From a bacterium BMS3Abin08 (GTDB lineage Bacteria > Nitrospirota > Thermodesulfovibrionia > Thermodesulfovibrionales > JdFR-85): 64,000 nucleotides of DNA. Below are positions 15,334 through 45,254 of the stretch, one piece after another. The DNA is taken from the NCBI GenBank assembly GCA_002897935.1, contig BDTA01000046.1:17934-81933 (forward strand), written 5' to 3'. The notes beneath the pieces were generated by a model that worked only from the letters and a program-made list of their open reading frames with translations, did no database searches and was not told the DNA's origin. The translations under genes and the position numbers were made by a program. How positions within the stretch are numbered: the first letter of the stretch is position 1; every line of letters begins with the position of its first letter.

Positions 15334-15414
15334 AACCCGACCTCCTCTCTCCGACAATTCGGGCCTGCTGCACGCCCTCTATATTATTTATACCCTATCA
15401 TGGAGGATGTTTTC

Positions 15415-15677: not shown

Positions 15678-15707
15678 TTGACACTACAGTTTTTTTCCTG
15701 ATACACT
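15678..15707 (+). promoter_or_regulatory. Possible sigma70-type promoter of the chemosensory cluster
   Basis: TTGACA (15678-15683), N18, then TACACT (15702-15707), about 57 nt upstream of the first che-cluster ORF. Confidence 0.3.
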
Positions 15708-15763: not shown

Positions 15764-16861
15764 ATGAGCCTGACAGGTAAATTAGAAGACCTCGGCCTTG
15801 CCGATATCTTTCAGATACTGAGTATCGGAAAGAAAACAGGGTCGCTGTTGGTCCGGGGAAAGGATATCCGTGCAGGGGTGATACTTAAAAGGGGGCTTGT
15901 CGTAAAGGCCGAAGCCAACATCCTCGACGGTGATATCGGAGATGACCTCCTCAAGGCCGGCCTTATCGACGAAGCAGGCTTACAGCTTGCCCGAAACATA
16001 AAGACCGACCTTCCGGAGAAGAGTATCGCCCGGGTGTTGCTGGAACTCGACTCGGTCAAAAAGGAATCAATAGACAGGATTGTCAAGAAGAGGATTGAAC
16101 AGGTGGTGTACCACCTCCTGCTTCTTGAAGAAGGCGACTTCAGTTTTGAACCCGATGAACTGGAGTTAAGACTGCCCGACCTGAAGGACCTGGGCTGGGT
16201 GGTTTCAAAGGGGCTCAGCCCTGAATACCTCCTTATGGAAGGAGCGAGGACCTACGACGAAACACACAAATTCGAAGAGGTCCTCAAAGAGGAACTCTCA
16301 GAGGAAGAAACCGGACCGGAGTGGTTTGAATGCAGCCAGCCCGAGTTCCCGAGGGAGATCTCATCACTGAGGGGATTGACCCAGGAACTCAGGCTTCCCG
16401 AGACCCCTTCGGAGATCTCTCTTTTGATCCTCCGGTTTGCAAGCGATATCTTTCAGAGGGCCGTACTATTTATAATGAATGATGAGATTCTCACAGGTTT
16501 CGGACAATTCGGACTTGATCTCGAGCAGGCTGACGAGAGGGTCCGTGAAATAGCGCTCCCAATCGAAGACAGCCCCTATTTCTCCAGGATAGTCAATGAT
16601 GGCAGGCCATTCAAAGGAGAGCTTGAGAAAGAACCCTTGACGGAGTTATTCATCGGTGAAATTGGCGGGAACTGGCCTGTAGAGGTGGTTTTTTACCCGA
16701 TTATTGCCGAAAATCGTGTTGTTGCGTTACTCTATTGTGACAATCAGCCACCGGGAGAACCGATTGGGGAAACCCCGGGGCTGGAGATCTTCGTAAACCA
16801 GGCGGGCCTTGCCCTTGAGAAGGCGATACTAAAACAAAAATTAGCCGAAAGGGGTGAATAA
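15764..16861 (+). CDS. DUF4388 (PATAN-like) N-terminal domain protein with GAF-like C-terminal domain
   Basis: The N-terminus GKLEDLGLADIFQILSIGKKTGSLLV matches the DUF4388 signature as I remember it. An acidic linker follows. The C-terminal roughly 150 aa look GAF-like. Confidence 0.7.
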   Translation: MSLTGKLEDLGLADIFQILSIGKKTGSLLVRGKDIRAGVILKRGLVVKAEANILDGDIGDDLLKAGLIDEAGLQLARNIKTDLPEKSIARVLLELDSVKKESIDRIVKKRIEQVVYHLLLLEEGDFSFEPDELELRLPDLKDLGWVVSKGLSPEYLLMEGARTYDETHKFEEVLKEELSEEETGPEWFECSQPEFPREISSLRGLTQELRLPETPSEISLLILRFASDIFQRAVLFIMNDEILTGFGQFGLDLEQADERVREIALPIEDSPYFSRIVNDGRPFKGELEKEPLTELFIGEIGGNWPVEVVFYPIIAENRVVALLYCDNQPPGEPIGETPGLEIFVNQAGLALEKAILKQKLAERGE

Positions 16862-16863
16862 CA

Positions 16864-17235
16864 GTGAAAAGGATCCTCATTGTTGAAGATTCCGATTCAA
16901 CAAGATCCATGATAAGGACAATGGTTGAGGATTTGGGGGAGGAATACCTTGTTTTTGACACGGGAAACGGTTTTGAGGCGTTAAAGTTACTTCCCACTGA
17001 AGATTTCAACATGATCATCACGGACATTAACATGCCCGATATCAACGGACTTGAACTGATAAACTTCATAAAGACAAATCCGAGATACAGGGACATCCCC
17101 CTGATCATCGTAAGTACGGAGAGGTCGGAAGAAGACCGCAACAGGGGACTTGCCCTTGGAGCCGACGCCTACATCACAAAACCCTTTAAGCCTGAGGAAC
17201 TCCAGGAAACGGTTAAACAAATAATTCAAAAATGA
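16864..17235 (+). CDS. cheY: CheY-like single-domain response regulator
   Basis: 123 aa, GTG start. VEDSDS, TDINMPDINGL, and ITKPF (conserved Lys). Confidence 0.9.
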   Translation: MKRILIVEDSDSTRSMIRTMVEDLGEEYLVFDTGNGFEALKLLPTEDFNMIITDINMPDINGLELINFIKTNPRYRDIPLIIVSTERSEEDRNRGLALGADAYITKPFKPEELQETVKQIIQK

Positions 17236-19190
17236 GTTCAACAAACAAAGAGTTTATTTCAGAAGCTGAAGACCTCCTTAATGAATCGAGGGAATGCCTC
17301 CTCGAGATACAGGATGGTTTTCCGGAACAATACAACCCTGACACACTCAATGCCTTATTCAGATCCATGCATACCCTGAAGGGGATCTCCGGACTTTACG
17401 GGCATGAAGGACTTAAAGACCTGAGTCACGAACTTGAAGGACTGCTTGACGAACTCCGTCTTGGCAGGATCGACTTGTCGGAGGATCTCATAAACTTCCT
17501 CTTCCATAACATTGACATAGTGAGGAACATGGTATCGGTGGCTTCTGAAGAAAAGGACACCGACGTCTCCTCCTGTATCCGGGAGATTGAGAGGTTCAAA
17601 AATACTGCGGGGATGTCCTCCGGCGAGGCCCCCTTAAGTGAAATAGTCGGGGAGGAAATTCTCAGGGTCTTATCCGAATATGAAGAGCACCGCTTAAGAA
17701 CAAACGTAAAGGATAAAAAGGGCATATTTCTTATCTACACCGTCTTCTCCCTCTCTGAATTCGACAAAGGGCTCTCCAAGCTCACCGGGACCCTGAAGAA
17801 AGACGGGGAACTCATCTCGACCCTCCCCACATCAGAGGGCATCCCGGAGGGCTCCATAGGCTTCAAACTCCTCTTTGCATCTGAAAAAGACCTGCACTAT
17901 CTAAGGGATAAAACCGGTCTGGTAATCGAGGAGATTTATAGCTGCAAACCCTCCACTGTACAGCCTGTCACTCAGGAGGAGACACTCAGAAGCGTCTCCT
18001 CAACCGTCAGGGTGGATATCGAAAAACTCGACAGGATCCTCAACACCATAGGCAAGCTGAACCTTACCAAGGGAGCCATAAGCAGGGTCGAGGAGGAACT
18101 GATCGAGACGTATGGTCACTCACACCTTGTGTTTGATATGCACAGGGTGATACAGAACTTTGACAGGCGACTCAAGGAACTCCAGGATGACGTCCTCCAG
18201 ATAAGGATGGTACCCGTAGGGCAGATATTCTCGAGGCTGGGACAGATTATCAGAAGATACTCAAAGGGATTGAAAAAAACCGTCGAGTTAAAGACCTTTG
18301 GCGAGGATACGGAGATTGACAAGTTCATTGCCGAGGAGATTGCCGACCCCCTGATGCATATTGTGAGAAATGCCCTTGATCACGGGATAGAAACCCCGGA
18401 GGAGCGCGCGTCTAAAGGAAAACCTCAAACCGCTCAGATCAAGCTGAGTGCATTCCCGAAGGGGAATCACGTTATTGTTGAGGTTGAAGACGACGGGCGT
18501 GGAATAGACCCTTCAAGGATAAAAGAGAAAGCAGATGCCCTCGGGCTCGTTTCCAGGCAGGATGAGCTTGATAAAAGCGAGATAATAAACTTCATTTTCC
18601 TGCCAGGCTTCACCACCAGCGAAACCATTACCGATGTCTCAGGCAGGGGCGTAGGCATGGATGTGGTTAAAGAGAAGATATCATCAATCGGTGGTTTCGT
18701 TGATGTTTCCTCGGAGATGGACGTGTTTACCCGCTTCTCACTGACTATACCCATTACCCTTGCAATCATTAAGTCCCTTTTAATACGGTCGGGAAGCCAC
18801 AACTTCGCCCTGCCCCTCACATCCATATCGGAGACCCTGCTTGTGAAGAGGACCGACATCCAGAGCATTGAAGGCAACATGATCTACAACCTCAGGGGAG
18901 AACTTCTCCCCACCATATCCCTTGCAGGGCTGTTTGACTTACGGACTGCGGACTCTGAAGAAAAATACATAGTTGTCGCAGGGTATGGTGAACGCAGAGT
19001 GGGCATTATTGTGGATGCGCTCATCGGGAGCCAGGATATGGTCATAAAATCACTCGGCGACTACTTCAGGAACTTCAAGGGATTTACAGGAGCTGCCGAA
19101 GTAGGCAAAAACGAAGTGATCCTCGTTATCGATGTTGAGGCGATCATGGAGGAAACGCTTAAGAGGTACCGGGGGTTGGCCCATGTATAG
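17232..19190 (+). CDS. cheA: Chemotaxis histidine kinase CheA
   Basis: 652 aa. Hpt domain (FRSMHTLKG), dimerisation domain, HATPase (HIVRNALDHGIE, DDGRGID, GRGVGMD) and a C-terminal CheW-like P5 domain. Confidence 0.95.
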   Translation: MSSTNKEFISEAEDLLNESRECLLEIQDGFPEQYNPDTLNALFRSMHTLKGISGLYGHEGLKDLSHELEGLLDELRLGRIDLSEDLINFLFHNIDIVRNMVSVASEEKDTDVSSCIREIERFKNTAGMSSGEAPLSEIVGEEILRVLSEYEEHRLRTNVKDKKGIFLIYTVFSLSEFDKGLSKLTGTLKKDGELISTLPTSEGIPEGSIGFKLLFASEKDLHYLRDKTGLVIEEIYSCKPSTVQPVTQEETLRSVSSTVRVDIEKLDRILNTIGKLNLTKGAISRVEEELIETYGHSHLVFDMHRVIQNFDRRLKELQDDVLQIRMVPVGQIFSRLGQIIRRYSKGLKKTVELKTFGEDTEIDKFIAEEIADPLMHIVRNALDHGIETPEERASKGKPQTAQIKLSAFPKGNHVIVEVEDDGRGIDPSRIKEKADALGLVSRQDELDKSEIINFIFLPGFTTSETITDVSGRGVGMDVVKEKISSIGGFVDVSSEMDVFTRFSLTIPITLAIIKSLLIRSGSHNFALPLTSISETLLVKRTDIQSIEGNMIYNLRGELLPTISLAGLFDLRTADSEEKYIVVAGYGERRVGIIVDALIGSQDMVIKSLGDYFRNFKGFTGAAEVGKNEVILVIDVEAIMEETLKRYRGLAHV

Positions 19191-19995
19191 GGACTTTTTT
19201 TCACTCAAGGACAGACCCTTCAGCAAGACCCCCGACCCGAGGTTCCTCTTTATGAGCAAGGCTCATGAAGAGGCGCTCGCAAGACTCCAGTATGCTGTTG
19301 AGGAAAGAGAGATCGTTCTCCTGACGGGTGAGATCGGCTGTGGCAAGACCACACTTACAAGGGCCCTGATGGATTGCCTTGATGAGAGCTACAGGGTTAT
19401 CCTTATACTTAATCCCCGGCTCACTGCGAACCAGTTCCTCAGGTCCATTGCAAAAAGGATGGAGATAACCATCCCCTCCGGTTACAAGGATGACCTCCTT
19501 GAAGCGATTTACCAGAAGGTCTACAACGATTATGAAAAGGGGATAACGCCCGTAATCATCATCGATGAGGCCCAGCTTATTCCAAAAAAGGATGCCTTTG
19601 AAGAAATCCGTCTTCTTACCAACTTTCAACTTGACGATACAAATCTTATAAGCCTCATACTCGTTGCTCAGCCCGATATCCGGAGGAGGCTGAGACACAG
19701 GGCATATGCCCCTTTAAGGCAGAGAATCGGACTCTTCTATCACATAGGGGCACTTGATGAGAAGGAAACCACAGACTACGTCGGACATAGATTAAAGACC
19801 TCGGGAAGGGGATCACGGCTCTTTACGGAAAGGGCTCTGAAGGTAATATTCAGATATTCCGGCGGAATACCCCGGGTTATCAACAGTATCGCCACTTCTG
19901 CGCTCCTTGATGCCTTTTCAAAGGACCAGGAGATCATCGATGAAGAGAACATTATTGATGCGGTAAGGGAGCTTGGATATAATGGATATAGCTAA
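19183..19995 (+). CDS. ExeA/GspA/MshM-like AAA+ ATPase (AAA_22 type)
   Basis: I place the start at ATG 19183, which overlaps the cheA stop by 8 nt. FSLKDRPFSKTPDPRFLFMSKAHEEALARLQY is the ExeA/MshM N-terminal signature. Walker A GEIGCGKTT, Walker B IIIDEAQ. Confidence 0.8.
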   Translation: MYRDFFSLKDRPFSKTPDPRFLFMSKAHEEALARLQYAVEEREIVLLTGEIGCGKTTLTRALMDCLDESYRVILILNPRLTANQFLRSIAKRMEITIPSGYKDDLLEAIYQKVYNDYEKGITPVIIIDEAQLIPKKDAFEEIRLLTNFQLDDTNLISLILVAQPDIRRRLRHRAYAPLRQRIGLFYHIGALDEKETTDYVGHRLKTSGRGSRLFTERALKVIFRYSGGIPRVINSIATSALLDAFSKDQEIIDEENIIDAVRELGYNGYS

Positions 19996-20695
19996 AGTCA
20001 GAAAAAAGGCAAGGAAGAAAAAAGAGACGAAAAACAAAGGCGGCAAGGCATCAAGGAAAAATGAGAGCGCCGTCAAGTCTCCTGAAACCGGACTTGCCGG
20101 GGCAGAAGAGATACGCGATGAGTCAACAGGGACCGGGAGACCTGAAGAACAAGCGGACCAGGAGCCACGGAAAGGCATCCCGGCTTCCGTGGAGTTGCTC
20201 TCTTTTCAGCTTGGGTCGGAGTGCTACGCCTTTCACATGAACGATGTTCAGGAGATAATCAATCTCTATAACCTGACCCCTGTACCCACGGGACCTGAAC
20301 ACCTGTGCGGCTTAATATCCTTAAGGGGAAGGATAATCCCCGTGCTGGACCTGACAAAGCTCCTTAAGCCGGACAGTTCAACCCTGGATAACGGCACCCT
20401 GCGGAAATTATCGAAAAACAGATTGCCAACCAGGAGAAAGGAGAAAGTAATCGTTGCAAAGGGGGGAAGAGGTCCGATCGGGGTCTTAACCGACCAGGTG
20501 GTTGATGTTATAAGGGTATCGGAAGACTCGCTCAACGAGCCACCCACTCATCTCACTGAATCAGAGGTAAGGTTTATTGAGAGTGTAAGCATCCATAGCG
20601 GCAGATTCATAACCGTACTAAAAAGCGATGCAGCGCTTTTTGTATTTGAAGACAATTTTGAAGACAATAAAGAAGAGGAGCATCCGCATTCTTGA
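19973..20695 (+). CDS. cheW: CheW-domain coupling protein with about 70-aa charged N-terminal extension
   Basis: CheW fold (LLSFQLGSECYAFHMNDVQEI...GLISLRGRIIPVLDL). Lys-rich then acidic N-terminus. Overlaps the ATPase gene by 23 nt. Confidence 0.88.
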   Translation: MDIMDIAKVRKKARKKKETKNKGGKASRKNESAVKSPETGLAGAEEIRDESTGTGRPEEQADQEPRKGIPASVELLSFQLGSECYAFHMNDVQEIINLYNLTPVPTGPEHLCGLISLRGRIIPVLDLTKLLKPDSSTLDNGTLRKLSKNRLPTRRKEKVIVAKGGRGPIGVLTDQVVDVIRVSEDSLNEPPTHLTESEVRFIESVSIHSGRFITVLKSDAALFVFEDNFEDNKEEEHPHS

Positions 20696-20765
20696 GTCTT
20701 TTAAAAGTGAACTACCCTGCGGCAGAGACCCCAGGGCGTCTGAAAATTGTATGTTTATTTTCGGT

Positions 20766-20838
20766 GTCATTCCCGCTTGTCGGGAATCCTTCAACTTGTT
20801 CTGGATCACAGGAAAGATTCCGGACAAGCCGGAATGAC
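20766..20838. repeat. Inverted pair of GTCATTCC-hairpin modules (TIR-less MITE core) inside the che operon
   Basis: gtcattcccgcttgtcgggaatc (20766-20788) and gattccggacaagccggaatgac (20816-20838). The second is the reverse complement of the core seen in MITE copies A1 and A2. Confidence 0.8.
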
Positions 20839-20966
20839 AGGAATAAGCCGGAATAACGGAAATAATGACGGAAATATGGAACTGCGGCAGAGACCGCATG
20901 GTGTTATATTTACCAAATATACAGGATGTAAAATTTCCCTCTCATTGATCAGATAAGGAGGAGATA

Positions 20967-23819
20967 ATGGGAACACTTGAAAAGAAGATTCTGGGGGCAG
21001 TAGTGCTTGTAATTGTTACAGGGTCTGTTTTTGCCGTCACCATGGTTTATTTTATGCAGAAAAAGAGCATATATGAAACCGCGCAGGAGAAGATGTTTGA
21101 AACTGCAAACGTTATCAGCAAAAGCCTGAAAAGAACAATGCTCGAAGGGAAGTCGGACATTACCAGGGCAATGTCCAACGATTTCAAGACCCTGAAAGGA
21201 ATTGAGAATATAACCATACTGAACCATGAGGGAAGAGAGGCCTTCAACAAGACTGCTCCTTCAAAGGAATCAGAGATTGTTAAAAGATTTGCTGCTGATC
21301 TGTCACCTTTTTCGATTATAAAAAACAACCGGATGTTGATTTACAGACCCCTCGAGAACTCTCCTGCGTGCCAGAAATGTCACTTGGTAAAAAGTCCTTT
21401 TCTCGGTGTTGTAAAGATCTCCATGTCACTCCGTGACGAGCAGAGCAAGATCGTAAGGATGGCTATGTTCAATATCCTGGCAACAATATCAGCGATTTTC
21501 ATACTCTCCTTTATAATCTGGATACTCATGAGGAAGATTATTATCAATCCCATCAGGAAGATAGAAGGAGCAGCGACTCTCCTTGCACAGGGGGACCTGA
21601 CCTTCAGAACCGACATAGCTGCCGATGATGAGATCGGCCAGGCAAGTTCCGCCCTTCAGGGCGCCCTGCAGTCAATATCATCGATACTTCAGAGGGTCAA
21701 GGATATCACCAGACGCGTCTCAAAGATTTCAACGGAGGTGGAAACTGAATCGAGAGACCTCGTTGAGACAACAAAAACCGAGACAGAGGCGATAGAGAAC
21801 ATATCAAGTTCCATTGAAGAACTCAATGCCTCGATCTCTGAGATAAGTGAAAGCACAGACGGTCTTGCAGTGTCATCTGAAGAGATGGCATCTGCAATCG
21901 AGGAGATGTCTGCCAGTATATTTCAGATTGCCCAGAACAGTAATGAGCTCTTTGAATCGGTTGAATCCAGTTCCTCCTCCATTGAAGAACTGACATCCTC
22001 AATCAAAGAGGTTGCTTCAAGTGCGGACGGTCTCCTGAATTCGACCGACGATACACTCTCAACCATTGAGGAGATTACCGCTTCAATAAGAGAAGTCGAG
22101 GTAAATACCAAGGAGTCCGCCAGGCTGAGTGAAAGGGTTATGACCGAGGCGTCAACATACGGTAAGGATGCCATTGAAAAGACGATAGAGGGAATGGAAA
22201 GGATAAAGATCTCAGTCGAGACCACCGCGGAGTACATAAAGAGACTGGGAGGCAGATCTGAAGAAATTGGAAAGATCCTCACGGTAATAGATGAAATCAC
22301 AGACCAGACCACCCTCCTCGCTCTTAATGCCGCCATACTTGCAGCGCAGGCCGGTGAACACGGCAAGGGCTTCTCCGTGGTAGCCGATGAGATCAAGGAT
22401 CTCGCTGAACGCACATCCTTCTCCACCCAGGAGATCTCAACGCTGATCCATACCGTCCAGAAAGAGGTCGCTGACGCAGTGTATGCAATGAACCTCGGAT
22501 TTGAGGCGGTTACCGGGGGGCTCGGTCTCTCAAAAAACGCATCCGGTGCGCTGGAGAAAATAATTGAAAGCGCCAGGCTTTCTTCCGATATGTCGACTGC
22601 CATAGAACACTCCACATCGGAACAATCCGAGGCTGCAAGGTTCGTTGCTGAATCAATGGAGAAGGTAAGGAACATGGTAAGCCAGATTGCAAAGGCAACT
22701 GCAGAGCAGTCAAGGGGCATGTCCCTCCTTATGAATGCAGCAGAACGCATAAGGAGTATTGCAACACAGGTCAAGACTGCAACAGAGGAACAGTCTCAAC
22801 AGAGCAAGCTCATACGCCAGAGCACGGAGGTTGTATCCGAAAAGAGCCAGCACATAGCAAGCGCACTCAACGAACAGAAAATGGGATCAGAGCAGATCAG
22901 GCATTCAATAAGGAACATCTCTGATATTCCTGCAAAGAACAGGAATATCTCCTTCAAGGTAAATAACGCCCTCAGGACACTCGTGAAGGATACCGAGCTT
23001 ATTGTGACAGAGATGGAGAAGTTCAGCTTCACACCTGTCTCTCATAGTGAAAAGACAACAAGGTTCGGCGTCATTCCCCTCGAGAGCCCCGCCGAGATGC
23101 ACCGGAGATTCAGCCCCCTCTCCGATTATCTCGGCAGAAAACTGGGTAAAAAGGTCGAGCTCAAGGTTGGTGTGGACTTCCAGGGCGCTATCCAGGATAT
23201 AGGCAACGGCGTGACCCAGCTATGCTTCATGACCCCGTCAACCTATATCAAGGCCAGAAGGGATTACAACGTAAGGGCGCTGGTAAAGGCGCTGAATAAC
23301 GGAAAGCCCTACCATCACTCCGTTATCATAGCACGCTCCGGCAGTTCCATCGCAGGTCTCAAAGACCTCAAGGGCAAGTCCTTCTGTTTCGGCGATCCTG
23401 ACTCAACCTCATCTCACATCGTACCGAGGTTTATGCTTCTTCAGGAAGGGGTGGACATCTCGGACCTGCTCTTTTACAACTACCTTGGTCACCATGACGA
23501 TGTCGCGGAGGCGGTCCTTTCAGGTGAATATGATGCAGGTGCCGTCATGGAGTTGACCGCCGAAAAATACAAGGAGCGGGGCCTGAAGTATATCAAGTTC
23601 TCAGAGGAGATTCCCGAGTTCAACGTATGTGTATCAAGGGATCTGCCTGAAAACGAGGTTCAGATGATTAAATCGGCCTTCCTGTCCCTTAAGGACACCG
23701 ACACTGAAGGGCTCTCCATCCTTAAATCAATAAATGAACATTACACAGGCTTTATTGAGACATCCGACGAAGACTATCAAAAGATCCGTGAAATGATGTC
23801 ACAAATACAACTGATCTGA
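20967..23819 (+). CDS. Methyl-accepting chemotaxis protein: 2 TM, CxxCH periplasmic domain, HAMP, signalling domain of about 64 heptads, C-terminal PhnD-like substrate-binding domain
   Basis: 950 aa, AAGGAGG RBS. TM helices at about residues 8-30 and 166-188. CQKCH at 21369-21383. Signalling tip [27 protein letters not shown]. The last roughly 250 aa ([11 protein letters not shown]...[16 protein letters not shown]...) look like a phosphonate/phosphate ABC binding protein. Confidence 0.88.
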
Positions 23820-23954
23820 GGAGGCAACCAATGGTAAAAGGAATTTCACTTTTAGTTTCATATGCTGCATGTCGGTTCATTGACTTTATCAGACATCCCG
23901 CGGGGCTGGAAATAATCAGGATGAATAATGCCCTGTCATCCGGTGGGAACTGAG

Positions 23955-25958
23955 ATGACTATCGAAAAGAGTCTCTCAACAAGGTTTATATACAGGATCC
24001 TGATAATTCTCTTCGTTGGACAGTCCCTGATCTGGGCATGGTCCTTCTACCGTGAAAAGACGACCCTCGAAGACTCCCTCAACAACGTGCTATCCCTGTC
24101 GGGTGGTATAATAAGCAACATAGCTGCAACCGCCCTTGTCAGCTCAGATCATACATATCTTGAACGGATAATCGATGATATCTTGAAGAATGAAGACATA
24201 ATCTCCGTAGAGATTCTGGATGCGGACGGGAAGAGACTCATCAAAAAGAGTCACGAAAGCACCGGGACTGCCTACAAAATATCCGAATTTCCCATTCGGT
24301 CCGGCACCGACGTAATAGGCAAGGTCAGGATAAGATACTCCGTTAGAAGGATAAAGGCAAACCTCGCCGGTCATCTCATCACCTCCATGATGCTCCAGAT
24401 GGTTGTCTTCATAGGTCTCATTTTTCTTATTGCCCTGTTCTTTAAACGTGATATCGGTGGACGCATAAGGGAGATGAGCAGGGTTATCGAGAAGATCACC
24501 CTTGGTGACCTGTCCCAAAGCATCGGCATCGAGGATAAAACGGAAATCGGAACAATAGCCCGTGGTATCGACTTCCTTATAACGAGACTGAAGGGTTACA
24601 TAAGAAAATTAAAGGATATCTCAAGGAATGTATCGGCGGCCATGAGCCAACTCAACCTGACCTTCAAGAACGTGACCAACAGTGTAAACAACCAGCAAAA
24701 ATCCCTTGAAGATGTCTCACTGTCCCTCAGAAATGCATCCAAGTCACAACTACGGATACATAAAAACACGGACACACTCCTTTCCCTTTCAAACGACAAT
24801 GTCTCTGCTCTCCTGGAATTCAAGGCTACCTCGGAAGAGATAGCCGCTGCTGCCGAAAGTCTTCAGCGCAATATTAACGACTCCTACTCGACCACTACCG
24901 AGCTTACCCAGTCATCACATGAAGTCGCCTCTCTTACAACGGAGGTATCCTCGGCTATGCAGGAGGCATCTGCCTCTGCAGATGAGATAAATGCGACGGT
25001 AAAGGAAATCGAACGCATCTCTCGGGAGTCGGCGGAACTGAGTTTCCTTACAACGGAAACCGTATCCGGGAAGGGGATGCTCTCGATTGTTGAAGCAGTT
25101 GAAAGGATGGAACAGATCGAGGCATCCGTAACTGAACTCAAGCAATCGATTGAGAGACTGGGAGGAATGTCCAAGGACATCGAGAAGATCCTCTCCGTCA
25201 TCAGGGATATTACGGAACAGACGGGGCTTTTGAGTCTGAACGCTCAAATTCTTGCGGTTCAGGCCGGGGAATACGGAAAGAGCTTTTCGATAGTGGCATC
25301 CGAGATGAAGACGCTGTCCGACAGGACCGCGTCCTCGACCCGGGAGATAGCTGGAATCGTTTCAACGCTCAAGAGAGAAATCCAGACGGTGGTAAATGGA
25401 ACCAATGAGACCTTTACCATGGTAGAGAAGGGAAGCGAAGCGGTAATGAATACAGGAGAGGCGCTTCGCGAGATCCTGCACTCCTCACAACGTTCGAGCG
25501 AGATCGCACAGAGTATAAAACGCGCATCGATTGAGCAGACGCGGGGACTTGAGTTGATTGTGAAGGCTATTGAACATATCAAAAAAATGATTTTTAAGGT
25601 AAGCAGGGCCACCGAGGAACAGGAAAAAGGCATTTCGTACCTTCTTGAGAGCGTCTCATCCATCAAGGAATCCATGGAGATCACAAAGAAGGCCACGGAC
25701 GAACAGGCGAAGAGCACAAAGTTTATCACCGACAATATAGAATTAGCAAATGAAAAAACCGCTGAAATAACAACGGCATCCTCTGAACAACAGAAGATAA
25801 ATGAGCACATAACGAGTCTCCTGCAGTCTGTAATGAATCTGGGTAAGAATACCGCAAGGGATGTCAAAGAGGTCTCGCTGTTCATATCATCGCTCCATGC
25901 GGAGGTGGAAGAACTCAGGAAGGAAATGGATCACTTCAGAACCGAAACAGGGCAATGA
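23955..25958 (+). CDS. Methyl-accepting chemotaxis protein (2 TM, small periplasmic domain, HAMP, signalling domain of about 64 heptads)
   Basis: The ORF opens at 23928, and ATG 23955 (MTIEKS) is the likelier start. Tip LLSLNAQILAVQAGEYGKSFSIVASEM. The stop overlaps the next cheW start. Confidence 0.9.
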   Translation: MTIEKSLSTRFIYRILIILFVGQSLIWAWSFYREKTTLEDSLNNVLSLSGGIISNIAATALVSSDHTYLERIIDDILKNEDIISVEILDADGKRLIKKSHESTGTAYKISEFPIRSGTDVIGKVRIRYSVRRIKANLAGHLITSMMLQMVVFIGLIFLIALFFKRDIGGRIREMSRVIEKITLGDLSQSIGIEDKTEIGTIARGIDFLITRLKGYIRKLKDISRNVSAAMSQLNLTFKNVTNSVNNQQKSLEDVSLSLRNASKSQLRIHKNTDTLLSLSNDNVSALLEFKATSEEIAAAAESLQRNINDSYSTTTELTQSSHEVASLTTEVSSAMQEASASADEINATVKEIERISRESAELSFLTTETVSGKGMLSIVEAVERMEQIEASVTELKQSIERLGGMSKDIEKILSVIRDITEQTGLLSLNAQILAVQAGEYGKSFSIVASEMKTLSDRTASSTREIAGIVSTLKREIQTVVNGTNETFTMVEKGSEAVMNTGEALREILHSSQRSSEIAQSIKRASIEQTRGLELIVKAIEHIKKMIFKVSRATEEQEKGISYLLESVSSIKESMEITKKATDEQAKSTKFITDNIELANEKTAEITTASSEQQKINEHITSLLQSVMNLGKNTARDVKEVSLFISSLHAEVEELRKEMDHFRTETGQ

Positions 25959-26500
25959 AATATCTTGTTTTCTTTATAAAGGACGATTACTTCGGGATTG
26001 ATATCTTCAAGCTTGCGGAGGTCCTGAATCCTGTAAAACTCCACGCGGTTCCCGATGTACCCGAGTTTATTTCCGGGGTAATAAACCACAGGGGTGAGGT
26101 CATCCCCGTTGTTTCCATGCGAAGGCGTTTCGGCATCACGGAAGAGGCGGGGAAGGCGCGGATCGTAATACTGGGATTCGGTAAAGGAGAGAAAATCGGC
26201 CTCCTGGTTGACGGTGTCACGGAGATAGCGGAGATACCCCGGGAACGGATATCAAAACCGTCCAGCCTGTTCAAGGGATTCAGGCCGGAATTCATTGAGG
26301 GAATAGCAGAGATGGGGAATGAACGGATTATTATCATCATGGATATAGAGAGGGTGTTCTCAACCGAGGAAAAGGTGCTCCTTAAGGAATCGAAGAGGAA
26401 GGCTGAAGGTGGAAAATCCCCCACTAAAAAAACCGCAAAAAAGGGAGGCGGCCAAAAAAGACTGCTCAGGAGCGCCGGGGTAAATGTAAAAGATGAATAA
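25955..26500 (+). CDS. cheW: CheW coupling protein with Lys-rich C-terminal tail
   Basis: 181 aa. CheW fold (YLVFFIKDDYFGIDI...INHRGEVIPVV). Tail KRKAEGGKSPTKKTAKKGGGQKR. Confidence 0.9.
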   Translation: MKYLVFFIKDDYFGIDIFKLAEVLNPVKLHAVPDVPEFISGVINHRGEVIPVVSMRRRFGITEEAGKARIVILGFGKGEKIGLLVDGVTEIAEIPRERISKPSSLFKGFRPEFIEGIAEMGNERIIIIMDIERVFSTEEKVLLKESKRKAEGGKSPTKKTAKKGGGQKRLLRSAGVNVKDE

Positions 26501-28451
26501 CGAAAAGCTCAACAGGGATATAGAACTGAAAAGGTCCAGGATCTTCTCTCAGAGAGGACGATCCGAAGGACTGTCGGTAATAATCGACTCCTTCAAGGAT
26601 GAAAGCTGGAGGGTAAGGAAAACCGCGCTTGACGTACTTATGGATAATTACCCCGCAGAAGGCTATATCCGGGATCTAATTAACCTCCTCTACCTGGAAG
26701 ACAACGCCGGCGCGCGTAATACCGCCATCGAGGCATTAACAAGACTGGGGAAGAAGGGACTCCCCAACCTGATAAAGGCATTCGATACGGACAACCGGGA
26801 TGTCAGGAAGTTTATAATTGATGTCATCGGCATAATCGGCGGCACGGAAGTAACACATCTTCTGCTTAAGGCTATAAGGGACGAAGACGAAAACGTCCGG
26901 GCCTCCGCGGTTGAATATCTCGGGAAGTTGAGGGAACCCTCTGTAACTGATGCACTGATAAATATAATTGAAGAGGAAGACGTCTGGACTGCCTATCCGG
27001 CGGTAAACGCACTCGGGATGATAGGCGACAGAAAGGTTATTCCCTTCCTTATTAAATCACTCGGGAACAGGCCGCTGACCGAACCCGCCCTCCGTTCACT
27101 TTCAGCGTTTTCCGAGCCCGACACCCTGCAATACGTAATCCCTCTCCTTCGTGATCAGAGACGTTCGATACAGGAAGAGACGCTCAGAACCATCGAGAGA
27201 TACTATGAAAACGGTGTTTCCGAAGAATATATCTCTGAGCGGCTCGTGGAACTCGTCGGTGCCGATGCATTTGAAATCTGCCTGAAATACACAAGCCATA
27301 ATAATCCGGAAGTAAAAAAGGCTGCCATAATCACCCTGGGGCTGCTACATGACCACCGTGCCGTGATGCAACTTCTCGATCTTGCCGAAGATGAAAACCT
27401 CAGGGATATTGTAAAGAGGGCGCTTGTCTTCATGGGCAAGAAAGACCCCGGCCTGTTTCCTGAACTCCTTCATACTGTAACGCCTGAAAAGAGAAGACTC
27501 ATTGTTGACTCAATGGCTGACATAGGCGCACCCGGTTACATCGATATCTTTACGGGGCTCCTGCATGATCGTGATGGGCATGTGATAGTTCATGCCGTAC
27601 GCGGACTCGGACGAATCGGTGACAAAAAGGCCGTCGACAACCTGCTTTCGATCCTGGGACATCCTTATCCCGATGTTCAGGAAGCGCTGATCGGTTCCTT
27701 AACAAAGCTGAAGGACCGGATTGACCCCTCTCACCTCATGGACGGACTCCGTTCTGCAAATGAGGTGATACGGAGAAACTCTGTTACACTCCTTGGTGAA
27801 TTAAGATCTGAATATGCATTACAGGAGCTGAGCCTCACACTTGGAGACCCTTCAGTTGGTGTCAGGACGGCAGCCGTTACGGCCATTTCACGTATCAGAT
27901 GGAAGGACACCCTGAAGTATATAAAGATGGCCCTGAGCGATGAGTCACCAGAGGTAAGAGAGGTGGCAACGGGGTGCCTTGCCATCTTTGACAACGATGA
28001 AGCCCTTGAAGCACTGAGAGTAATGGCAAAGGATTCAGAAGGGTCCGTACGTGCTATGGCCGCACGGACTCTTTCTTCCATCAGGAATGAAGGGGCTGTT
28101 GAGACCCTTATAAATCTGCTTCATGACCGGAACGGCTTTGTCGTCACCCAGGCTATCGAATCATTGTCGGCATTTAACCACCCGTCTGCAAGGAAGGAGT
28201 TGCTCGGTTTACTCAACTTCCCCGACAGGGAAATTAAGAGGACCGCCATCATGGCGCTTTCTTCCTATTCCGGGGTGGAGGATGCAGTAAAACCCTTCCT
28301 GTTCAGCGAAGACTGGGCAACAAGGCTTGCGGCGGTCCAGGCGCTCTCAAGGATGGGGACCGAAAAGGCAAGGGAATGTCTCGAAGGGATTTACGATATT
28401 GAAGACGATCCCTCCGTGAAGAGGGAAATCGAGGACGGATTAGGTGTTTGA
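26493..28451 (+). CDS. HEAT-repeat (PBS-lyase-type) protein
   Basis: 652 aa. Repeated units of about 31 aa (D..VR..A...LG.....A...L) run along the whole length. Overlaps cheW (8 nt) and cheR (8 nt). Confidence 0.85.
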   Translation: MNNEKLNRDIELKRSRIFSQRGRSEGLSVIIDSFKDESWRVRKTALDVLMDNYPAEGYIRDLINLLYLEDNAGARNTAIEALTRLGKKGLPNLIKAFDTDNRDVRKFIIDVIGIIGGTEVTHLLLKAIRDEDENVRASAVEYLGKLREPSVTDALINIIEEEDVWTAYPAVNALGMIGDRKVIPFLIKSLGNRPLTEPALRSLSAFSEPDTLQYVIPLLRDQRRSIQEETLRTIERYYENGVSEEYISERLVELVGADAFEICLKYTSHNNPEVKKAAIITLGLLHDHRAVMQLLDLAEDENLRDIVKRALVFMGKKDPGLFPELLHTVTPEKRRLIVDSMADIGAPGYIDIFTGLLHDRDGHVIVHAVRGLGRIGDKKAVDNLLSILGHPYPDVQEALIGSLTKLKDRIDPSHLMDGLRSANEVIRRNSVTLLGELRSEYALQELSLTLGDPSVGVRTAAVTAISRIRWKDTLKYIKMALSDESPEVREVATGCLAIFDNDEALEALRVMAKDSEGSVRAMAARTLSSIRNEGAVETLINLLHDRNGFVVTQAIESLSAFNHPSARKELLGLLNFPDREIKRTAIMALSSYSGVEDAVKPFLFSEDWATRLAAVQALSRMGTEKARECLEGIYDIEDDPSVKREIEDGLGV

Positions 28452-29334
28452 AGGGGAAGAAACCATCAAGTTAAATGAAGATGCCTTTAGACTTCTCCGT
28501 GAACTCATCAGGGACTTCTCCGGCATCTATTTTGATAACAAATCGAGATCCCTCCTTGAGAGAAGACTTAACGGCCGTCTCAGGTCACATAATATAAAAA
28601 CCTTCCGGGACTATTACAGATACCTGCTGTATGACCGCAACAGGGACACCGAACTGTCCGAGATAATGGATATACTTACCGTCAATGAGACCTATTTTTT
28701 CAGGGAAAAAAACCAGCTCCGTGCCTTCTCGGAAGAGATACTGCCTGAGTTGAAAGAGAGGAATAGAAGAAAAAGGAAAATCAGGATCCTTTCGGCAGGA
28801 TGTTCTTCCGGCGAAGAGCCCTATACTATAGCAATGCTTATACTTGAGAGCAACCTCCTCTGGAACTGGGAAATCGACATAATAGGCTGTGACATAAACA
28901 GGGGGGTCCTGCAGACCGCAAGGAACGCTGTTTACAGGCAGAACTCTTTCCGCTGTACCGATGAATACTACCGGAAGAAATACTTTGTGACCGATAACGG
29001 CAACTCATACAGGATAAAGGACAACCTCAAGGGTCTTGTCCACTTCGGATATCTCAATCTCCTTGATGCCGGGAAGGTCCTCTTTCTCGGCACCATGGAT
29101 GTCGTCTTCTGCAGAAATGTCCTTATCTATTTCGATGGACCTTCGAGGAAAAGAGTCGTCGAAAGTTTTTATAATTTACTCCCGGAAGACGGATACCTTC
29201 TTCTGGGACATGCTGAATCACTCATAAATATCTCCACAGCCTTTTCATTAAAACAGCTTCAGCATGATCTTGTATATACCAAACCCGTTGCAACAGAAGG
29301 GGAGCCCCATAAGTTATACGGGCCTCCAACCTGA
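28444..29334 (+). CDS. cheR: Chemotaxis protein methyltransferase CheR
   Basis: 296 aa, GTG start. ETYFFRE and the SAM-binding ILSAGCSSGEEPYTIAM motif. Confidence 0.93.
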   Translation: MFEGEETIKLNEDAFRLLRELIRDFSGIYFDNKSRSLLERRLNGRLRSHNIKTFRDYYRYLLYDRNRDTELSEIMDILTVNETYFFREKNQLRAFSEEILPELKERNRRKRKIRILSAGCSSGEEPYTIAMLILESNLLWNWEIDIIGCDINRGVLQTARNAVYRQNSFRCTDEYYRKKYFVTDNGNSYRIKDNLKGLVHFGYLNLLDAGKVLFLGTMDVVFCRNVLIYFDGPSRKRVVESFYNLLPEDGYLLLGHAESLINISTAFSLKQLQHDLVYTKPVATEGEPHKLYGPPT

Positions 29335-29348
29335 GGAGTATTACAGTT

Positions 29349-30410
29349 ATGGATAAAAAGACAAAGGTTCTTGTTGTGGATGACTCCGCTTTCAGCAGAC
29401 AGGCAATAAAAAAGATGCTCTCTAAAGACCCGGCGATCGATGTTATTGCTGTTGCCGTTGACGGTATAGATGCCATTTCAAAAACACTCAGATACAGACC
29501 CGATATAATAACCCTTGATATCGAGATGCCCCACATGGATGGTTTCAGCTTTCTGAGATGGCTTACAAAGGAATGTCCCACGCCCGTTATTATGGTCAGT
29601 TCCCTCTCCAACAGCAGGACGGTTTTCAGGACACTGGAGATGGGTGCCGTCGACTTTATTGCAAAACCCACAAGACGTGCATCACCTGAGATTGAAAAGA
29701 TCGAGCAGGATTTGCTCAATAAGATCCACAGTATAAACCTCAACTCCCTCAAGAAGCTCAACAGGAACCTTGACAACCTCTACAGGAGAAAATCCCTGAA
29801 GACCCTGGATGCCCGTGAAACAACCGATCCGGGAGTAATTGCCATAGGCGCCTCCACAGGCGGGCCTCAGGCCCTTCAGCTAATCCTGACTTCCCTGCCC
29901 GAGGGGTTCCCACTGCCTGTTGTAATCAGCCAGCATATGCCGGGGGAATTCACGGGGGCGCTTGCAGCCAGACTTGACCAGCTCTCTTATATCAATGTAA
30001 AGGAAGCCGTGGAAGGAGATACCCTTGAGCCTTCAACTGCACTGATATGCCCCGGAGGACATCATATGCAGTTGAAAAAGAGCAGAAACAGGGTTCTTGT
30101 CAAGTTACTCGAGGCAGATGAATCCGACAGGTACGTACCTTCAGTCGACATCATGATGAAATCAGCAGCTGATATTTTTAAAAACAGGACACTTGGTGTT
30201 ATACTAACCGGAATGGGAAACGACGGAAAAGAGGGCATGAAGGAGATTTACGGAAAAGATGGCTTTACGGTTGCCGAGTCCGAGAAGACAGCGGTGGTTT
30301 TCGGTATGCCGCAGGAAGTGATCAAGGCGGGTTTTGCCAAGCGCATAATGCCGCTTAACAGCATACCTGCAGAGCTTAAGAGACGCGTTTTAAAAGAAAA
30401 CATTAAATGA
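29349..30410 (+). CDS. cheB: Protein-glutamate methylesterase CheB (receiver + esterase)
   Basis: 353 aa. VLVVDDS...TLDIEMPHMDG receiver domain. IGASTGGPQAL and TGMGNDG esterase motifs. Confidence 0.94.
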   Translation: MDKKTKVLVVDDSAFSRQAIKKMLSKDPAIDVIAVAVDGIDAISKTLRYRPDIITLDIEMPHMDGFSFLRWLTKECPTPVIMVSSLSNSRTVFRTLEMGAVDFIAKPTRRASPEIEKIEQDLLNKIHSINLNSLKKLNRNLDNLYRRKSLKTLDARETTDPGVIAIGASTGGPQALQLILTSLPEGFPLPVVISQHMPGEFTGALAARLDQLSYINVKEAVEGDTLEPSTALICPGGHHMQLKKSRNRVLVKLLEADESDRYVPSVDIMMKSAADIFKNRTLGVILTGMGNDGKEGMKEIYGKDGFTVAESEKTAVVFGMPQEVIKAGFAKRIMPLNSIPAELKRRVLKENIK

Positions 30411-30416
30411 AAAGCC

Positions 30417-31238
30417 ATGAAAGATGAGGGATCCATATTGAAAAAGGCCGAGGAGTTTTTACAGATCTTCAGGAAGGGTGAAGAGTTCACAAAAATCCTT
30501 CTTAAGGAGAACGAACGGCTCCGTTTCAGGGCTGCCAAACTGGAAGAAGAAATCGGCGGAAGTGCGAACGGGATACGTATAAAGAACTACGAGGAGAGGA
30601 TCAGCGTTCTTGAAAGAGAGCTTGCCTCTTACAAGGAGCATTTCAGGAAGGTGGAGGAGGAAAACAAGGATTTTGCACAGAGATATATCGAGGTGGAGGA
30701 GGAAAACAACAACCTCGCCAATCTCTATGTTGCAAGTTACCAGTTACATTCCACGCTGGATTATGACGAGGTGCTCAAGATAGTCCTTGAGATAATCATA
30801 AACCTGATCGGCGCTGAATCCTTTGCAATCATGCTTATCGATGAAAAAAACAAGCAGCTCATCGCGGTAGCAAGCGAAGGCCTGGATATCGGCACCATCC
30901 CGAACATAAACATGGGTGAGGGCATAATAGGTACGGTAGCCAGGGATGGAGAGGGATTTTTCTCTGAAAAGATGATCCATAGGGACGGGATTGATCCTGT
31001 TAACCCTATCGTCTGCATACCCCTGAAAATCAAGGAGCATGTAATCGGGGTAATCGCTTTTTACTCCTTTTTCATTCAGAAATCAGCCTTCTCTAATATT
31101 GACTATGAACTCTTCAATCTCCTTGCAGGTCATGCAGCAACCGCCATCTTCTCATCGCGCCTCTACACTCAGTCAGAGAGGAAGCTTACCACGATTCAGA
31201 GTTTCCTTGAACTTTTAAAAGAAAAACCCGGGAGATAA
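30417..31238 (+). CDS. Coiled-coil + GAF domain protein
   Basis: 273 aa. The N-terminal roughly 110 aa are heptad-rich (ERLRFRAAKLEEE...VEEENNNLANLY). A GAF-like domain follows (VLKIVLEIIINLIGAESFAIMLID...). Confidence 0.75.
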   Translation: MKDEGSILKKAEEFLQIFRKGEEFTKILLKENERLRFRAAKLEEEIGGSANGIRIKNYEERISVLERELASYKEHFRKVEEENKDFAQRYIEVEEENNNLANLYVASYQLHSTLDYDEVLKIVLEIIINLIGAESFAIMLIDEKNKQLIAVASEGLDIGTIPNINMGEGIIGTVARDGEGFFSEKMIHRDGIDPVNPIVCIPLKIKEHVIGVIAFYSFFIQKSAFSNIDYELFNLLAGHAATAIFSSRLYTQSERKLTTIQSFLELLKEKPGR

Positions 31239-31248
31239 AGGAGGCTCT

Positions 31249-31617
31249 ATGCCCAGCATCCTCGTTGTAGAAGATTCACCTACCATGAGACAACTGATAA
31301 GCTTTGCCATGCGGCGGATACCCAAGTCCAGTGTGATAGAGGCAACCGACGGTGTTGATGCCCTGAAAAAACTCTCAACAGAGAAGGTCGATATCATTCT
31401 GGCGGACATAAACATGCCTGTCATGGATGGACTGAAACTTATAAGTCTCGTACGGGGAAACCCCTCTTACAAGGACATACCTATTATCATTATCACCACT
31501 GAAGGAGCTGAAGAGGACAGAAAAAAGGCTTTGGCTATCGGCGCAAACGACTATCTTGCAAAACCGATACAGACACAGCAACTCGTAAAACTCGTGAAGA
31601 AGTATCTTCCCGATTGA
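31249..31617 (+). CDS. cheY: CheY-like single-domain response regulator (paralog of 16864..17235)
   Basis: 122 aa. VVEDSPT, ADINMPVMDGL, LAKP. Confidence 0.9.
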   Translation: MPSILVVEDSPTMRQLISFAMRRIPKSSVIEATDGVDALKKLSTEKVDIILADINMPVMDGLKLISLVRGNPSYKDIPIIIITTEGAEEDRKKALAIGANDYLAKPIQTQQLVKLVKKYLPD

Positions 31618-31685: not shown

Positions 31686-32699
31686 TTACCTGTGCCCTTT
31701 TAACTGACCACAGGCTGCAAGTATGTCCCGCCCCTTGCTCTTTCTTATTAAAGCAGTCATTCCCCTCCTTATAAGGATCTCCTGAAAGGCAAGGATCTTC
31801 TCATCGGGTGACGGTCTGAACTCTGCACCCTCAAAGGGATTGAAAGGTATAAGATTAACCTTGGACGGGATTCCCCTCAACATGATCACAAGGCGTTCGG
31901 CGTCTTCCGGGTTATCATTCAGACCCTCAATGAGTATGTACTCAAAGGTTATGCGACGTCTTCTGTCAAGGGGGTAGTTCCTGCATGCCGAGAGGAGTTC
32001 CTCTATTTGATACCGCCTGTTTACGGGCATCAACATATCCCTTACCGCATTAGTTGTAGCATTGAGGGATACTGCAAGGTTAACTGAAGGTATAACCCCG
32101 GGAAGCCTGTTTATGACAGGGACAACCCCCGCTGTCGAGAGGGTTATTCTCCTCTTGGATATCCTGAGATGACCCGTTATTCTCCAGAGGGCGTCGGCAA
32201 CCCCGTCGAGGTTGTTTAAGGGTTCACCCATACCCATCAATACGATGCCTGTCAGCTCTTCCGGTTTGATCAATCTCCGGACAGTTATTACCTGGTCTGC
32301 AATCTCATGGGCCGTGAGGTTACGAACAAACCCAATCCTTGCAGTCAGGCAGAACCTGCACCCCATGGTACAACCGACCTGGGATGATATACACAGGGTG
32401 CGTCTCCCGCCATCGGGAATCAGTACGGTCTCTATAGTCTCGCCGTCCTCAAGACCGAAGAGGAACTTCTCGGTCCCATCTCCTGATACCTGACGTTCAA
32501 TTACCTTCAGTGAACTGATGTATGCTATCCGGGAGAGTCTCTCTCTCAGGGGGACCGGCAACTCGGTGATGTCCCTGACATCGGTAACACCCCTTTCGTA
32601 GATCCAGTGGATAAGCTGCTTTTCTCTGTATGATGGCAGGCCAAGCGAACCGACCACTGATGAGAGGTCTTCTTCATTCAGAGACTTGAGATCAATCAT
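31686..32699 (-). CDS. rlmN: 23S rRNA/tRNA adenine-C2 methyltransferase RlmN (radical SAM)
   Basis: 337 aa. CTMGCRFC cluster motif and AACGQL near the C-terminus. Confidence 0.92.
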   Translation of the reverse strand: MIDLKSLNEEDLSSVVGSLGLPSYREKQLIHWIYERGVTDVRDITELPVPLRERLSRIAYISSLKVIERQVSGDGTEKFLFGLEDGETIETVLIPDGGRRTLCISSQVGCTMGCRFCLTARIGFVRNLTAHEIADQVITVRRLIKPEELTGIVLMGMGEPLNNLDGVADALWRITGHLRISKRRITLSTAGVVPVINRLPGVIPSVNLAVSLNATTNAVRDMLMPVNRRYQIEELLSACRNYPLDRRRRITFEYILIEGLNDNPEDAERLVIMLRGIPSKVNLIPFNPFEGAEFRPSPDEKILAFQEILIRRGMTALIRKSKGRDILAACGQLKGHR

Positions 32700-32726
32700 C
32701 TTGCCGCCTAAATGACCGCTGCCGTC

Positions 32727-33992: not shown

Positions 33993-34086
33993 TCCTTGTA
34001 ATGAAGTACCTGCGGCAAAAACCGCGGGTTGACCTAAACAAAATATCTGCTTGTTACTTCAATGAATTCCCATCAACATTCAATCA

Positions 34087-45227: not shown

Positions 45228-45254
45228 AAACGAACGTTCTTGGAGGAGGTTTAA

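Follow-up and report, generated by a model that had tools for sequence, protein, structure and literature searches.

Chemotaxis-like pathways outside the flagellar classes are common, though few of them have a known output. The locus described here raises the question of which pathway a complete set of chemosensory genes belongs to, and what it could act upon, when no motor genes stand beside it. In the present study, we analysed a stretch of 64,000 nucleotides (nt) from a deep-sea Nitrospirota genome (bacterium BMS3Abin08, contig BDTA01000046.1, hereafter the window), in which 13 open reading frames (ORFs) on the plus strand at 15764-31617 form a chemosensory operon. We found that this cluster is very probably a member of the Geobacter beta-group/Esn non-flagellar chemosensory pathway, located here in Nitrospirota and carrying its receptors inside the operon. 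It is a known, still poorly understood pathway and not a new kind of system. The names given to its genes in GenBank ('archaeal ATPase', 'putative lyase', 'hypothetical protein') conceal the nature of the operon, whose genes, with their Pfam matches, are the following.

15764-16861, plus strand: PATAN (DUF4388) protein with a C-terminal GAF fold (PATAN-GAF), 365 amino acids (aa); DUF4388, 1.8e-23
16864-17235, plus strand: CheY-like receiver 1 (CheY1), 123 aa; Response_reg, 2.6e-27; 47-77% identical in related loci
17232-19190, plus strand: CheA kinase with Hpt, dimerisation, HATPase_c and CheW-like domains; a single Hpt and no fused receiver
19183-19995, plus strand: AAA+ ATPase, 270 aa, AAA_22/ExeA-like; AAA_22, 1.2e-23
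19982-20695, plus strand: CheW-a, with the N-terminal peptide MDIAKVRKKA (19982-20011), a low-complexity linker and a CheW domain, 5.4e-27
20967-23819, plus strand: receptor 1, a methyl-accepting chemotaxis protein (MCP1), 950 aa; two transmembrane segments, periplasmic domain (about residues 32-160), HAMP, hairpin of 64 heptads (64H), Phosphonate-bd domain
23955-25958 (alternative start 23928), plus strand: receptor 2 (MCP2); two transmembrane segments, weak CHASE8-like periplasmic domain, HAMP, 64H hairpin
25955-26500, plus strand: CheW-b, 181 aa; CheW, 1.4e-33
26493-28451, plus strand: HEAT-repeat (PBS-lyase-like) protein, 652 aa; HEAT_2, 3.8e-88, in 10 stretches; 'putative lyase' in GenBank
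28444-29334, plus strand: CheR methyltransferase; CheR, 9.7e-58, and CheR_N
29349-30410, plus strand: CheB methylesterase with a receiver; CheB_methylest, 6.4e-61, and Response_reg
30417-31238, plus strand: coiled-coil and GAF protein (ccGAF), 273 aa; GAF_3, 4e-17; 50-70% identical across phyla
31249-31617, plus strand: CheY-like receiver 2 (CheY2), 122 aa, last gene of the operon; Response_reg, 9.6e-30; 59-82% identical across phyla

All 13 ORFs were present where an initial annotation, made from the letters of the window, had placed them, and the Pfam and NCBIfam domains agreed with the gene order that it had listed. The close packing of the genes was also borne out. The PATAN-GAF and CheY1 genes are 2 nt apart (16861/16864), overlaps of 4 nt were seen at CheY1/CheA (17232-17235) and at receptor 2/CheW-b (25955-25958), overlaps of 8 nt at CheA/ATPase (19183-19190), CheW-b/HEAT (26493-26500) and HEAT/CheR (28444-28451), and the last four genes (CheR, CheB, ccGAF and CheY2) are separated by spacers of 14, 6 and 10 nt. 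Two sizeable gaps, of 271 nt and about 135 nt, had been described; the first stands, with an insertion of about 200 nt inside it, and the second, which precedes receptor 2, measures 108 nt with the start at 23928 and 135 nt with the start at 23955. The start of receptor 2 was picked by analogy with the gene call in a near-identical contig (L001).

The conservation of this arrangement was examined by a genome scan, in which an alignment of the ATPase was run against one genome per species, giving 80 loci, followed by tblastn with all 13 proteins. The flank taken at each locus was 10 kb, and the counts are limited to loci with enough flanking DNA. The order PATAN (one or two)-CheY-CheA-ATPase-CheW-(MCPs)-CheW-HEAT-CheR-CheB-ccGAF-CheY was recurrent: dozens of loci, distributed over three or more phyla, were collinear. 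The che-linked loci belonged to Nitrospirota, to the Geobacter, Oryzomonas, Geopsychrobacter and Desulfuromonadales lineages, to Acidobacteriota (Thermoanaerobaculia and Vicinamibacteria) and to unclassified bins, and the closest named relatives of the window cluster were Nitrospirota/Thermodesulfovibrionales bins. The cheA gene was directly upstream of the ATPase gene in all 51 informative loci, at an ATPase identity of 48-70%, and two further che-type loci begin at the ATPase. None of the 27 loci with an ATPase identity of 38-44% had che genes. PATAN genes were found upstream of CheY-CheA in 33 of the 39 loci, often as two paralogs, the HEAT gene between CheW and CheR in 27/33 and CheR/CheB in 26/33. 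The counts for ccGAF (14/33) and CheY2 (13/33) are too low, as loci rich in receptors extend beyond the 10-kb flank, and these two proteins are the best conserved after the ATPase (50-70% and 59-82% identity, respectively). The window CheA shared 33-55% identity with the CheA proteins of related loci. Receptors inside the operon (14 of 33 loci) are typical of the Nitrospirota versions.

These neighbourhoods bear out the proposal that the accessory genes (ATPase, PATAN, HEAT and ccGAF) are conserved beside che genes, and in at least three phyla the four make up a conserved core within a pathway that is not flagellar. It would be extremely improbable that they are accidental neighbours without any role in the pathway. 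In favour of an accident it may be said that a biochemical connection to Che proteins has not been demonstrated in this lineage for any of the four; this has to be set against the collinear order with overlapping stop and start codons, kept in dozens of loci of three phyla, and against the sharp identity break between che-linked (at least 48%) and non-che (at most 44%) ATPases. The neighbouring genes on the two flanks (Crp, HemN-like, RlmN-like, AhcY and MetK) behave otherwise: in other genomes they are not kept beside the cluster, and they were therefore rejected as parts of the system. We also observed a minimal CheY-CheA-ATPase triad with no other che genes nearby in the loci L003 and L004 (7619-13435), where it adjoins a 402-aa Ras-like GTPase and a GAF-GGDEF gene on the opposite strand; the L003-type ATPase and CheA are 69% and 49% identical to those of the window, respectively.

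Among the known systems, the Geobacter beta-group/Esn cluster (GSU2212-GSU2224 region) showed the closest likeness. Its order is CheY-CheA-ATPase-CheW-...-CheW-HEAT-CheR-CheB-(ccGAF-CheY), with one or more PATAN genes upstream, like that of the window. In both, cheA, two cheW, cheR and cheB are in one cluster away from flagellar genes, and the ATPase gene stands between cheA and cheW (GSU2222-GSU2221-GSU2220 in Geobacter, 17232-20695 in the window). Three Geobacter-lineage loci (L035, L038 and L043) were collinear with the window, with 51-53% identity of the ATPase and 40-42% of CheA. The window cluster is therefore regarded as the Nitrospirota counterpart of the beta-group/Esn cluster, and, as the host phylum is Nitrospirota, such clusters are not specific to delta-proteobacteria. 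The likeness has its limits: in many Geobacter-type loci, unlike the window, PATAN is present as two paralogs and a further CheY gene stands between the cheW genes, and the Geobacter receptor EsnA is encoded elsewhere and has a cytoplasmic GAF domain, whereas the window has two 64H receptors inside the operon.

The Geobacter cluster has been studied genetically. Tran et al described it in 2008 as the 'beta-group' che cluster and mentioned unpublished knockouts that were said to affect the extracellular matrix (PMC2577667). In 2017, Chan et al reported the CheW gene GSU2220 (esnB), the 'ATPase' gene GSU2221 (score -2.1) and the CheA gene GSU2222 (esnC) as hits of transposon sequencing (Tn-seq) for growth on electrodes (PMC5585712). 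They demonstrated that deletions of esnA, esnB, esnC and esnD block electrode colonisation and not Fe(III) oxide reduction, and that the GAF-containing receptor EsnA, encoded elsewhere, interacts with EsnB and EsnC in two-hybrid tests; EsnD, an unlinked response regulator with a diguanylate cyclase, is the proposed output (PMC5585712). In addition, a Tn5 insertion in GSU2224, upstream of the cheY GSU2223 and the cheA GSU2222, led to an oxygen-tolerant, aggregating biofilm (PMC8242959). Beta-group clusters were also present in five of the five Desulfuromonas genomes compared, three of which have no flagellar gene cluster and all of which have one to three 64H receptors (PMC8235581). The initial annotation had taken the four accessory proteins for the input and output machinery of an uncharacterised system; their integral membership holds, and the word uncharacterised has to be given up in view of the beta-group/Esn data and of EsnD as a proposed output.

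The search for motor genes covered the window ORFs of at least 150 aa and 10 kb past each window end (contig BDTP01000066.1, GCA_002897875.1). In these approximately 84 kb, no flagellar, pilus, CheZ, CheC, CheD, CheX or CheV genes were found, which agrees with what had been noted for the 64 kb of the window and extends it by 10 kb on each side. The remainder of the window and the added 20 kb contain housekeeping genes. The flagellar classes (F1-F17), on the other hand, are linked to flagellar genes or to CheZ, CheC, CheD, CheX or CheV. Ordinary flagellar chemotaxis with its motor genes elsewhere in the genome is quite unlikely in our opinion. It would agree with the full set of CheA, CheW, CheY, CheR and CheB and with the transmembrane receptors, and some Thermodesulfovibrionia are flagellated. 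Most MiST classes are also flagellar (PMC10782961). Apart from the lack of motor genes in the 84 kb, however, the homologous cluster is kept in Desulfuromonas strains without flagella (PMC8235581), the phenotypes of Geobacter mutants concern surface colonisation and not swimming (PMC5585712), and the four accessory genes have no counterpart in the flagellar classes.

Concerning other outputs, the statement that the 64 kb hold no DNA-binding genes proved to be wrong, since a Crp/FNR regulator (14234-14923), an OmpR-type regulator (35345) and an NtrC-type regulator (48050) are present. No GGDEF gene was detected in the window. In most loci the operon stops with CheY2, and convergent genes follow it here and in most of them; no classical output gene is conserved after CheY2, the downstream genes being convergent or unrelated. 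In two loci of Acidobacteriota, L030 (18144-20097) and L039 (17986-20686), the operon runs on beyond CheY2, with a protein of 429-487 aa without a Pfam match and a small ORF (a 4Fe-4S ferredoxin in L039, without a Pfam match in L030). A second, shorter HEAT-repeat protein past CheY2 was seen in L039 only, and none of these added genes has a GGDEF, PilZ or DNA-binding domain.

The PATAN domain of the first gene directs attention to type IV pili. The cluster could control them, in twitching or pilus-dependent attachment, with the PATAN domain targeting the pilus motor and with PATAN-GAF and CheY1 acting as a split PATAN-receiver protein. This is suggested by the domain itself and by the CheY gene that follows it at 2 nt; moreover, an interaction of PATAN response regulators with the motor of type IV pili was reported for Synechocystis (bioRxiv 10.1101/2021.06.11.447907), and pilus genes were hits in the same Geobacter electrode screen (PMC5585712). 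The cyanobacterial PatA-type regulators (PixG) likewise combine a PATAN domain, a chemotaxis-like operon and a receiver alongside, but in these the PATAN domain is fused to the receiver, whereas in the window its fusion partner is a GAF fold, the receiver being encoded separately by the neighbouring gene. We nevertheless consider control of pili unlikely, because no pilus genes were found in the 84 kb, because the PATAN gene is missing from 6 of the 39 loci, and because the window CheA, with one Hpt and without a fused receiver, differs from most kinases of the type IV pilus (Pil-Chp) class, which have multiple Hpt domains and a fused receiver (PMC10782961).

The C-terminal half of the PATAN protein had no match in Pfam and no sequence match in the Protein Data Bank (PDB). 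An AlphaFold (AF2) model made from 31 homologs reached a predicted local distance difference test score (pLDDT) of 82, and Foldseek matched residues of about 198-364 to GAF domains with template modelling (TM) scores of 0.71-0.76. Since Foldseek gives a GAF fold for this half, the label 'GAF-like' in the initial annotation was correct; an MglB/Roadblock-type domain, prompted by the Geobacter annotation 'PATAN domain GTPase-activating protein', was rejected for the same reason. The PATAN domain itself has a helical insertion. In ccGAF, the junction between the coiled coil and the GAF domain is the most conserved stretch. We also considered whether the HEAT protein, by its lyase-like repeats, loads a tetrapyrrole (bilin) on a GAF cysteine. 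This idea was rejected, as ccGAF has no conserved cysteine; Cys325 of PATAN-GAF, which is Cys in 9/16 and Gly in 7/16 sequences across lineages, also counts against it.

For the HEAT protein, the relevant precedent is Myxococcus xanthus Che7, in which a HEAT-repeat protein (Cpc7) was reported as the partner of CheY7 (PMC9040617). The contact of CheY with the HEAT protein in Che7-type systems is dependent on phosphorylation. The Che7 order from locus tags is CheY7-CheA7-CheW7-Mcp7-(MXAN_6961)-CheR7-CheB7 (PMC3945109). The window was compared with Che7/Che8 by gene order and domain layout. On this basis they share the core order with a HEAT gene between the receptor/CheW genes and cheR, and CheA7 (683 aa) has the Hpt, dimerisation, HATPase and CheW domains of the window CheA. 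Unlike in the window, cheA and cheW of Che7/Che8 carry locus tags between which an ATPase gene cannot be placed. Furthermore, Mcp7 is soluble, whereas the window receptors have two transmembrane segments each, no PATAN-GAF or ccGAF is reported for Che7, and its adjacent desaturase has no counterpart at the window cluster.

The receptors had been described as having divergent tips, and very long 64H receptors had been mentioned for Geobacter-type bacteria. Both tip motifs, one of which is LNAQILAVQAGEYGKSF, were confirmed, and they recur in related Nitrospirota receptors. In MCP1, the HAMP domain ends at residue 237, the tip glutamate is E464 and the periplasmic binding protein (PBP)-type domain starts at about 694; in MCP2, the corresponding positions are 222, E448 and the protein end at 676. 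As 224 residues lie on either side of the tip glutamate in both receptors, they have 64 heptads (32 per arm), which fits that remark; the 64H assignment is by arm geometry, the class-specific MiST hidden Markov models being outside Pfam (PMC6943060). The C-arm of 224 residues and the other of the two tip motifs recur in related receptors. Receptors of the 40+24H type are typical of Geobacteraceae (PMC3543383).

Two properties of receptor 1 were overlooked in the initial annotation. The first is its C-terminal Phosphonate-bd domain (about residues 695-950; 23049-23819; 5e-65), for which PtxB (4e-30), PhnD, ArrX and AioX are the closest solved proteins. This binding domain should be cytoplasmic, because no third transmembrane segment is predicted. 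The fusion of MCP and Phosphonate-bd recurs in Nitrospirota loci, and a search of 5.8 billion proteins gave about 14 protein clusters with both MCPsignal and Phosphonate-bd across the junction. The second is a CXXCH motif in the periplasmic domain (C135-H139; 21369-21383), which, in a weak match (E 0.065), lines up with the haem-binding motif in two haem-c sensor domains, 3B42 and 3B47; the Pfam match of this domain to Mcp40H-20_sensor (4e-4) is below the cut-off. The motif is kept in the receptor 1 orthologs of five independent loci (L007, L008, L009, L011 and L015) and in the near-identical L001 and L002, and the cytochrome c maturation genes ResB and CcsA are at 43788-46334, 20 kb downstream. 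In comparison with the haem-c PAS receptors GSU0582 and GSU0935 of G. sulfurreducens (PDB 3B47 and 3B42), the periplasmic domain of MCP1 is similar in size and its CXXCH is aligned, but MCP1 differs from them in its 64H signalling domain and in the added C-terminal PtxB/PhnD-like domain.

The ATPase is an accessory protein strictly tied to the kinase. Its Walker A (GEIGCGKTT) and Walker B (IIIDEAQ) motifs are invariant. It matched TIGR03015 (XrtA/PEP-CTERM-associated ATPase) over the full length (1.8e-69), with 234 bits against a cut-off of 324.5, and a sequence search of PDB gave generic P-loop matches only. The nearest structures to its model (pLDDT 72) were MuB and archaeal ORC/Cdc6, and because the TM scores are modest (0.43-0.50), membership of the switch/recruiter-type AAA+ proteins is a hint only. 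The AAA_22 family is common to this protein and to the ExeA/GspA, MshM and TIGR03015 ATPases. Unlike TIGR03015 and ExeA/GspA, however, it is below the family cut-off, it has no peptidoglycan-binding (PG_binding) domain in Pfam, and the che-linked form is always found with CheA. With respect to the non-che relatives at 38-44% identity (L058-L084), some are in polysaccharide-export loci with a GNVR chain-length determinant, a BY-kinase-like ATPase, a low-molecular-weight phosphotyrosine phosphatase and GT4, and others resemble ExeA/GspA and are fused to a peptidoglycan-binding domain or have T2SSB as a neighbour; examples of non-che loci are L070 (8456-11862), L063 and L074 (7659-10795) and L068 (9959-11773).

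A short peptide of the pattern MD(I/L)aKIRKKa opens the gene after the ATPase, that is CheW-a, in 49 of the 53 che-linked loci (L005-L057) from three phyla. Its distance from the ATPase stop codon varies from -10 to +286 nt, and a variable low-complexity linker and the CheW domain come after it. Elsewhere, the pattern occurred once in 850 kb (six frames) of che-linked loci and not at all in 416 kb of non-che loci. Since position 19982 is the only occurrence of the peptide in the window, CheW-a most likely starts at ATG 19982 and not at TTG 19973. The second coupling protein, CheW-b, ends in a Lys-rich tail (26380-26500; KRKAEGGKSPTKKTAKKGGGQKRLL...), which is probably disordered.

It is possible, but in our judgement doubtful, that the ATPase and the CheW peptide form a new ATP-driven module, with the HEAT, PATAN-GAF and ccGAF proteins as the true effectors of phospho-CheY. 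The module would then assemble, position or remodel the 64H arrays, or connect them with the machinery of the envelope or of polysaccharides. If true, this would be a motility-independent output route common to Nitrospirota, Desulfuromonadales and Acidobacteriota.

Within the beta-group/Esn assignment, we propose the following working of the pathway, which we offer tentatively and at somewhat less than even confidence. The 64H receptors would form an array with CheW-a, CheW-b and CheA. Receptor 1 would probably read the periplasmic redox state or a ligand by its haem-c-type domain and, by its C-terminal PtxB/PhnD-like domain, a cytoplasmic oxyanion-type ligand, and CheR and CheB would adapt the array. 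CheA would phosphorylate CheY1, CheY2 and CheB; a response regulator from another locus, for example an EsnD-like diguanylate cyclase, is a possible further target. The output would be by protein-protein contact and not by a flagellar motor, phospho-CheY acting on the HEAT protein (as in CheY7-Cpc7 of Myxococcus) and/or on the two GAF proteins, and in the end surface attachment, matrix or biofilm behaviour would be affected. The ATPase would serve the array as an ATP-dependent factor for assembly or recruitment, and may dock on the N-terminal peptide of the adjacent CheW.

Taken as a whole, identity and proposed working together, we hold this account to be the probable one, by no wide measure, and several points weigh against it. 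The published beta group was defined without mcp genes, and the window cluster has two (20967-25958). The orthology to the G. sulfurreducens PCA genes (GSU2221/GSU2222) is suggested by Geobacter-lineage metagenome bins and locus-tag annotation. The roles given to the ATPase, the HEAT protein and the GAF proteins, as well as the docking on the CheW peptide, are analogies only, and the putative haem sensor of MCP1 draws on weak similarity and an aligned CXXCH. Polarity on the downstream cheW could account for the Tn-seq phenotype of GSU2221, and flagellar genes may be present in the rest of the genome. Finally, for this organism and phylum the pathway is known from its genes alone, the genetic data being those of Geobacter.

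Two further features were noted outside the coding regions.

15678-15707, plus strand: candidate sigma-70-like promoter (TTGACA-18-TACACT with TG), 57 nt upstream of the first gene
20707-20905, no strand assigned: insertion, about 200 nt long, between the CheW-a and MCP1 genes; it is flanked by 23-nt direct repeats (CTGCGGCAGAGACC core) and contains an inverted repeat of 28 nt as well as short units of AAGCCGGAAT in tandem

The promoter candidate is suggestive by its position alone, because such sites in the region are not above the shuffle expectation in total. No sigma-54 promoter match better than chance was obtained upstream of the operon, and no tRNAs or Rfam structured RNAs were found in the window. 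The spacer that holds the insertion is 66 nt in L001, whose proteins are 95-99% identical, against 271 nt in the window. The 271-nt gap is not ancestral, the difference being the insert of about 200 nt, which looks like a small mobile element.

At the two ends of the operon, other genes were observed. On the minus strand at 31686-35238, an RlmN-like radical S-adenosylmethionine (SAM) gene, an S-adenosylhomocysteine hydrolase and a SAM synthetase converge on the operon end, and the operon holds the SAM-dependent CheR; this arrangement is not kept in other loci and is therefore probably coincidental. On the other side, a 145-aa ORF (14920-15357, minus strand) between the Crp gene and the che operon resembles haem-copper oxidase subunit I in part, over positions 310-398 of the COX1 profile only. 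This ORF, which is kept in L001, could be either a remnant or the gene of a small membrane protein.

What is new here is the spread of the pathway beyond the delta-proteobacteria, the embedded 64H receptors, one of which has a putative haem-type sensor and a binding domain at its C-terminus, the strict linkage of CheA and the ATPase, and the CheW peptide. The Esn/beta-group pathway is relevant to the colonisation of electrodes and minerals, and the receptors inside the Nitrospirota operon provide candidate signals for it, namely those of a haem-c-type periplasmic sensor and of a cytoplasmic oxyanion-type binding domain. It is suggested that the CheA-linked ATPase subfamily, the N-terminal peptide of CheW and the two GAF proteins could serve as handles for experiments in G. 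sulfurreducens.

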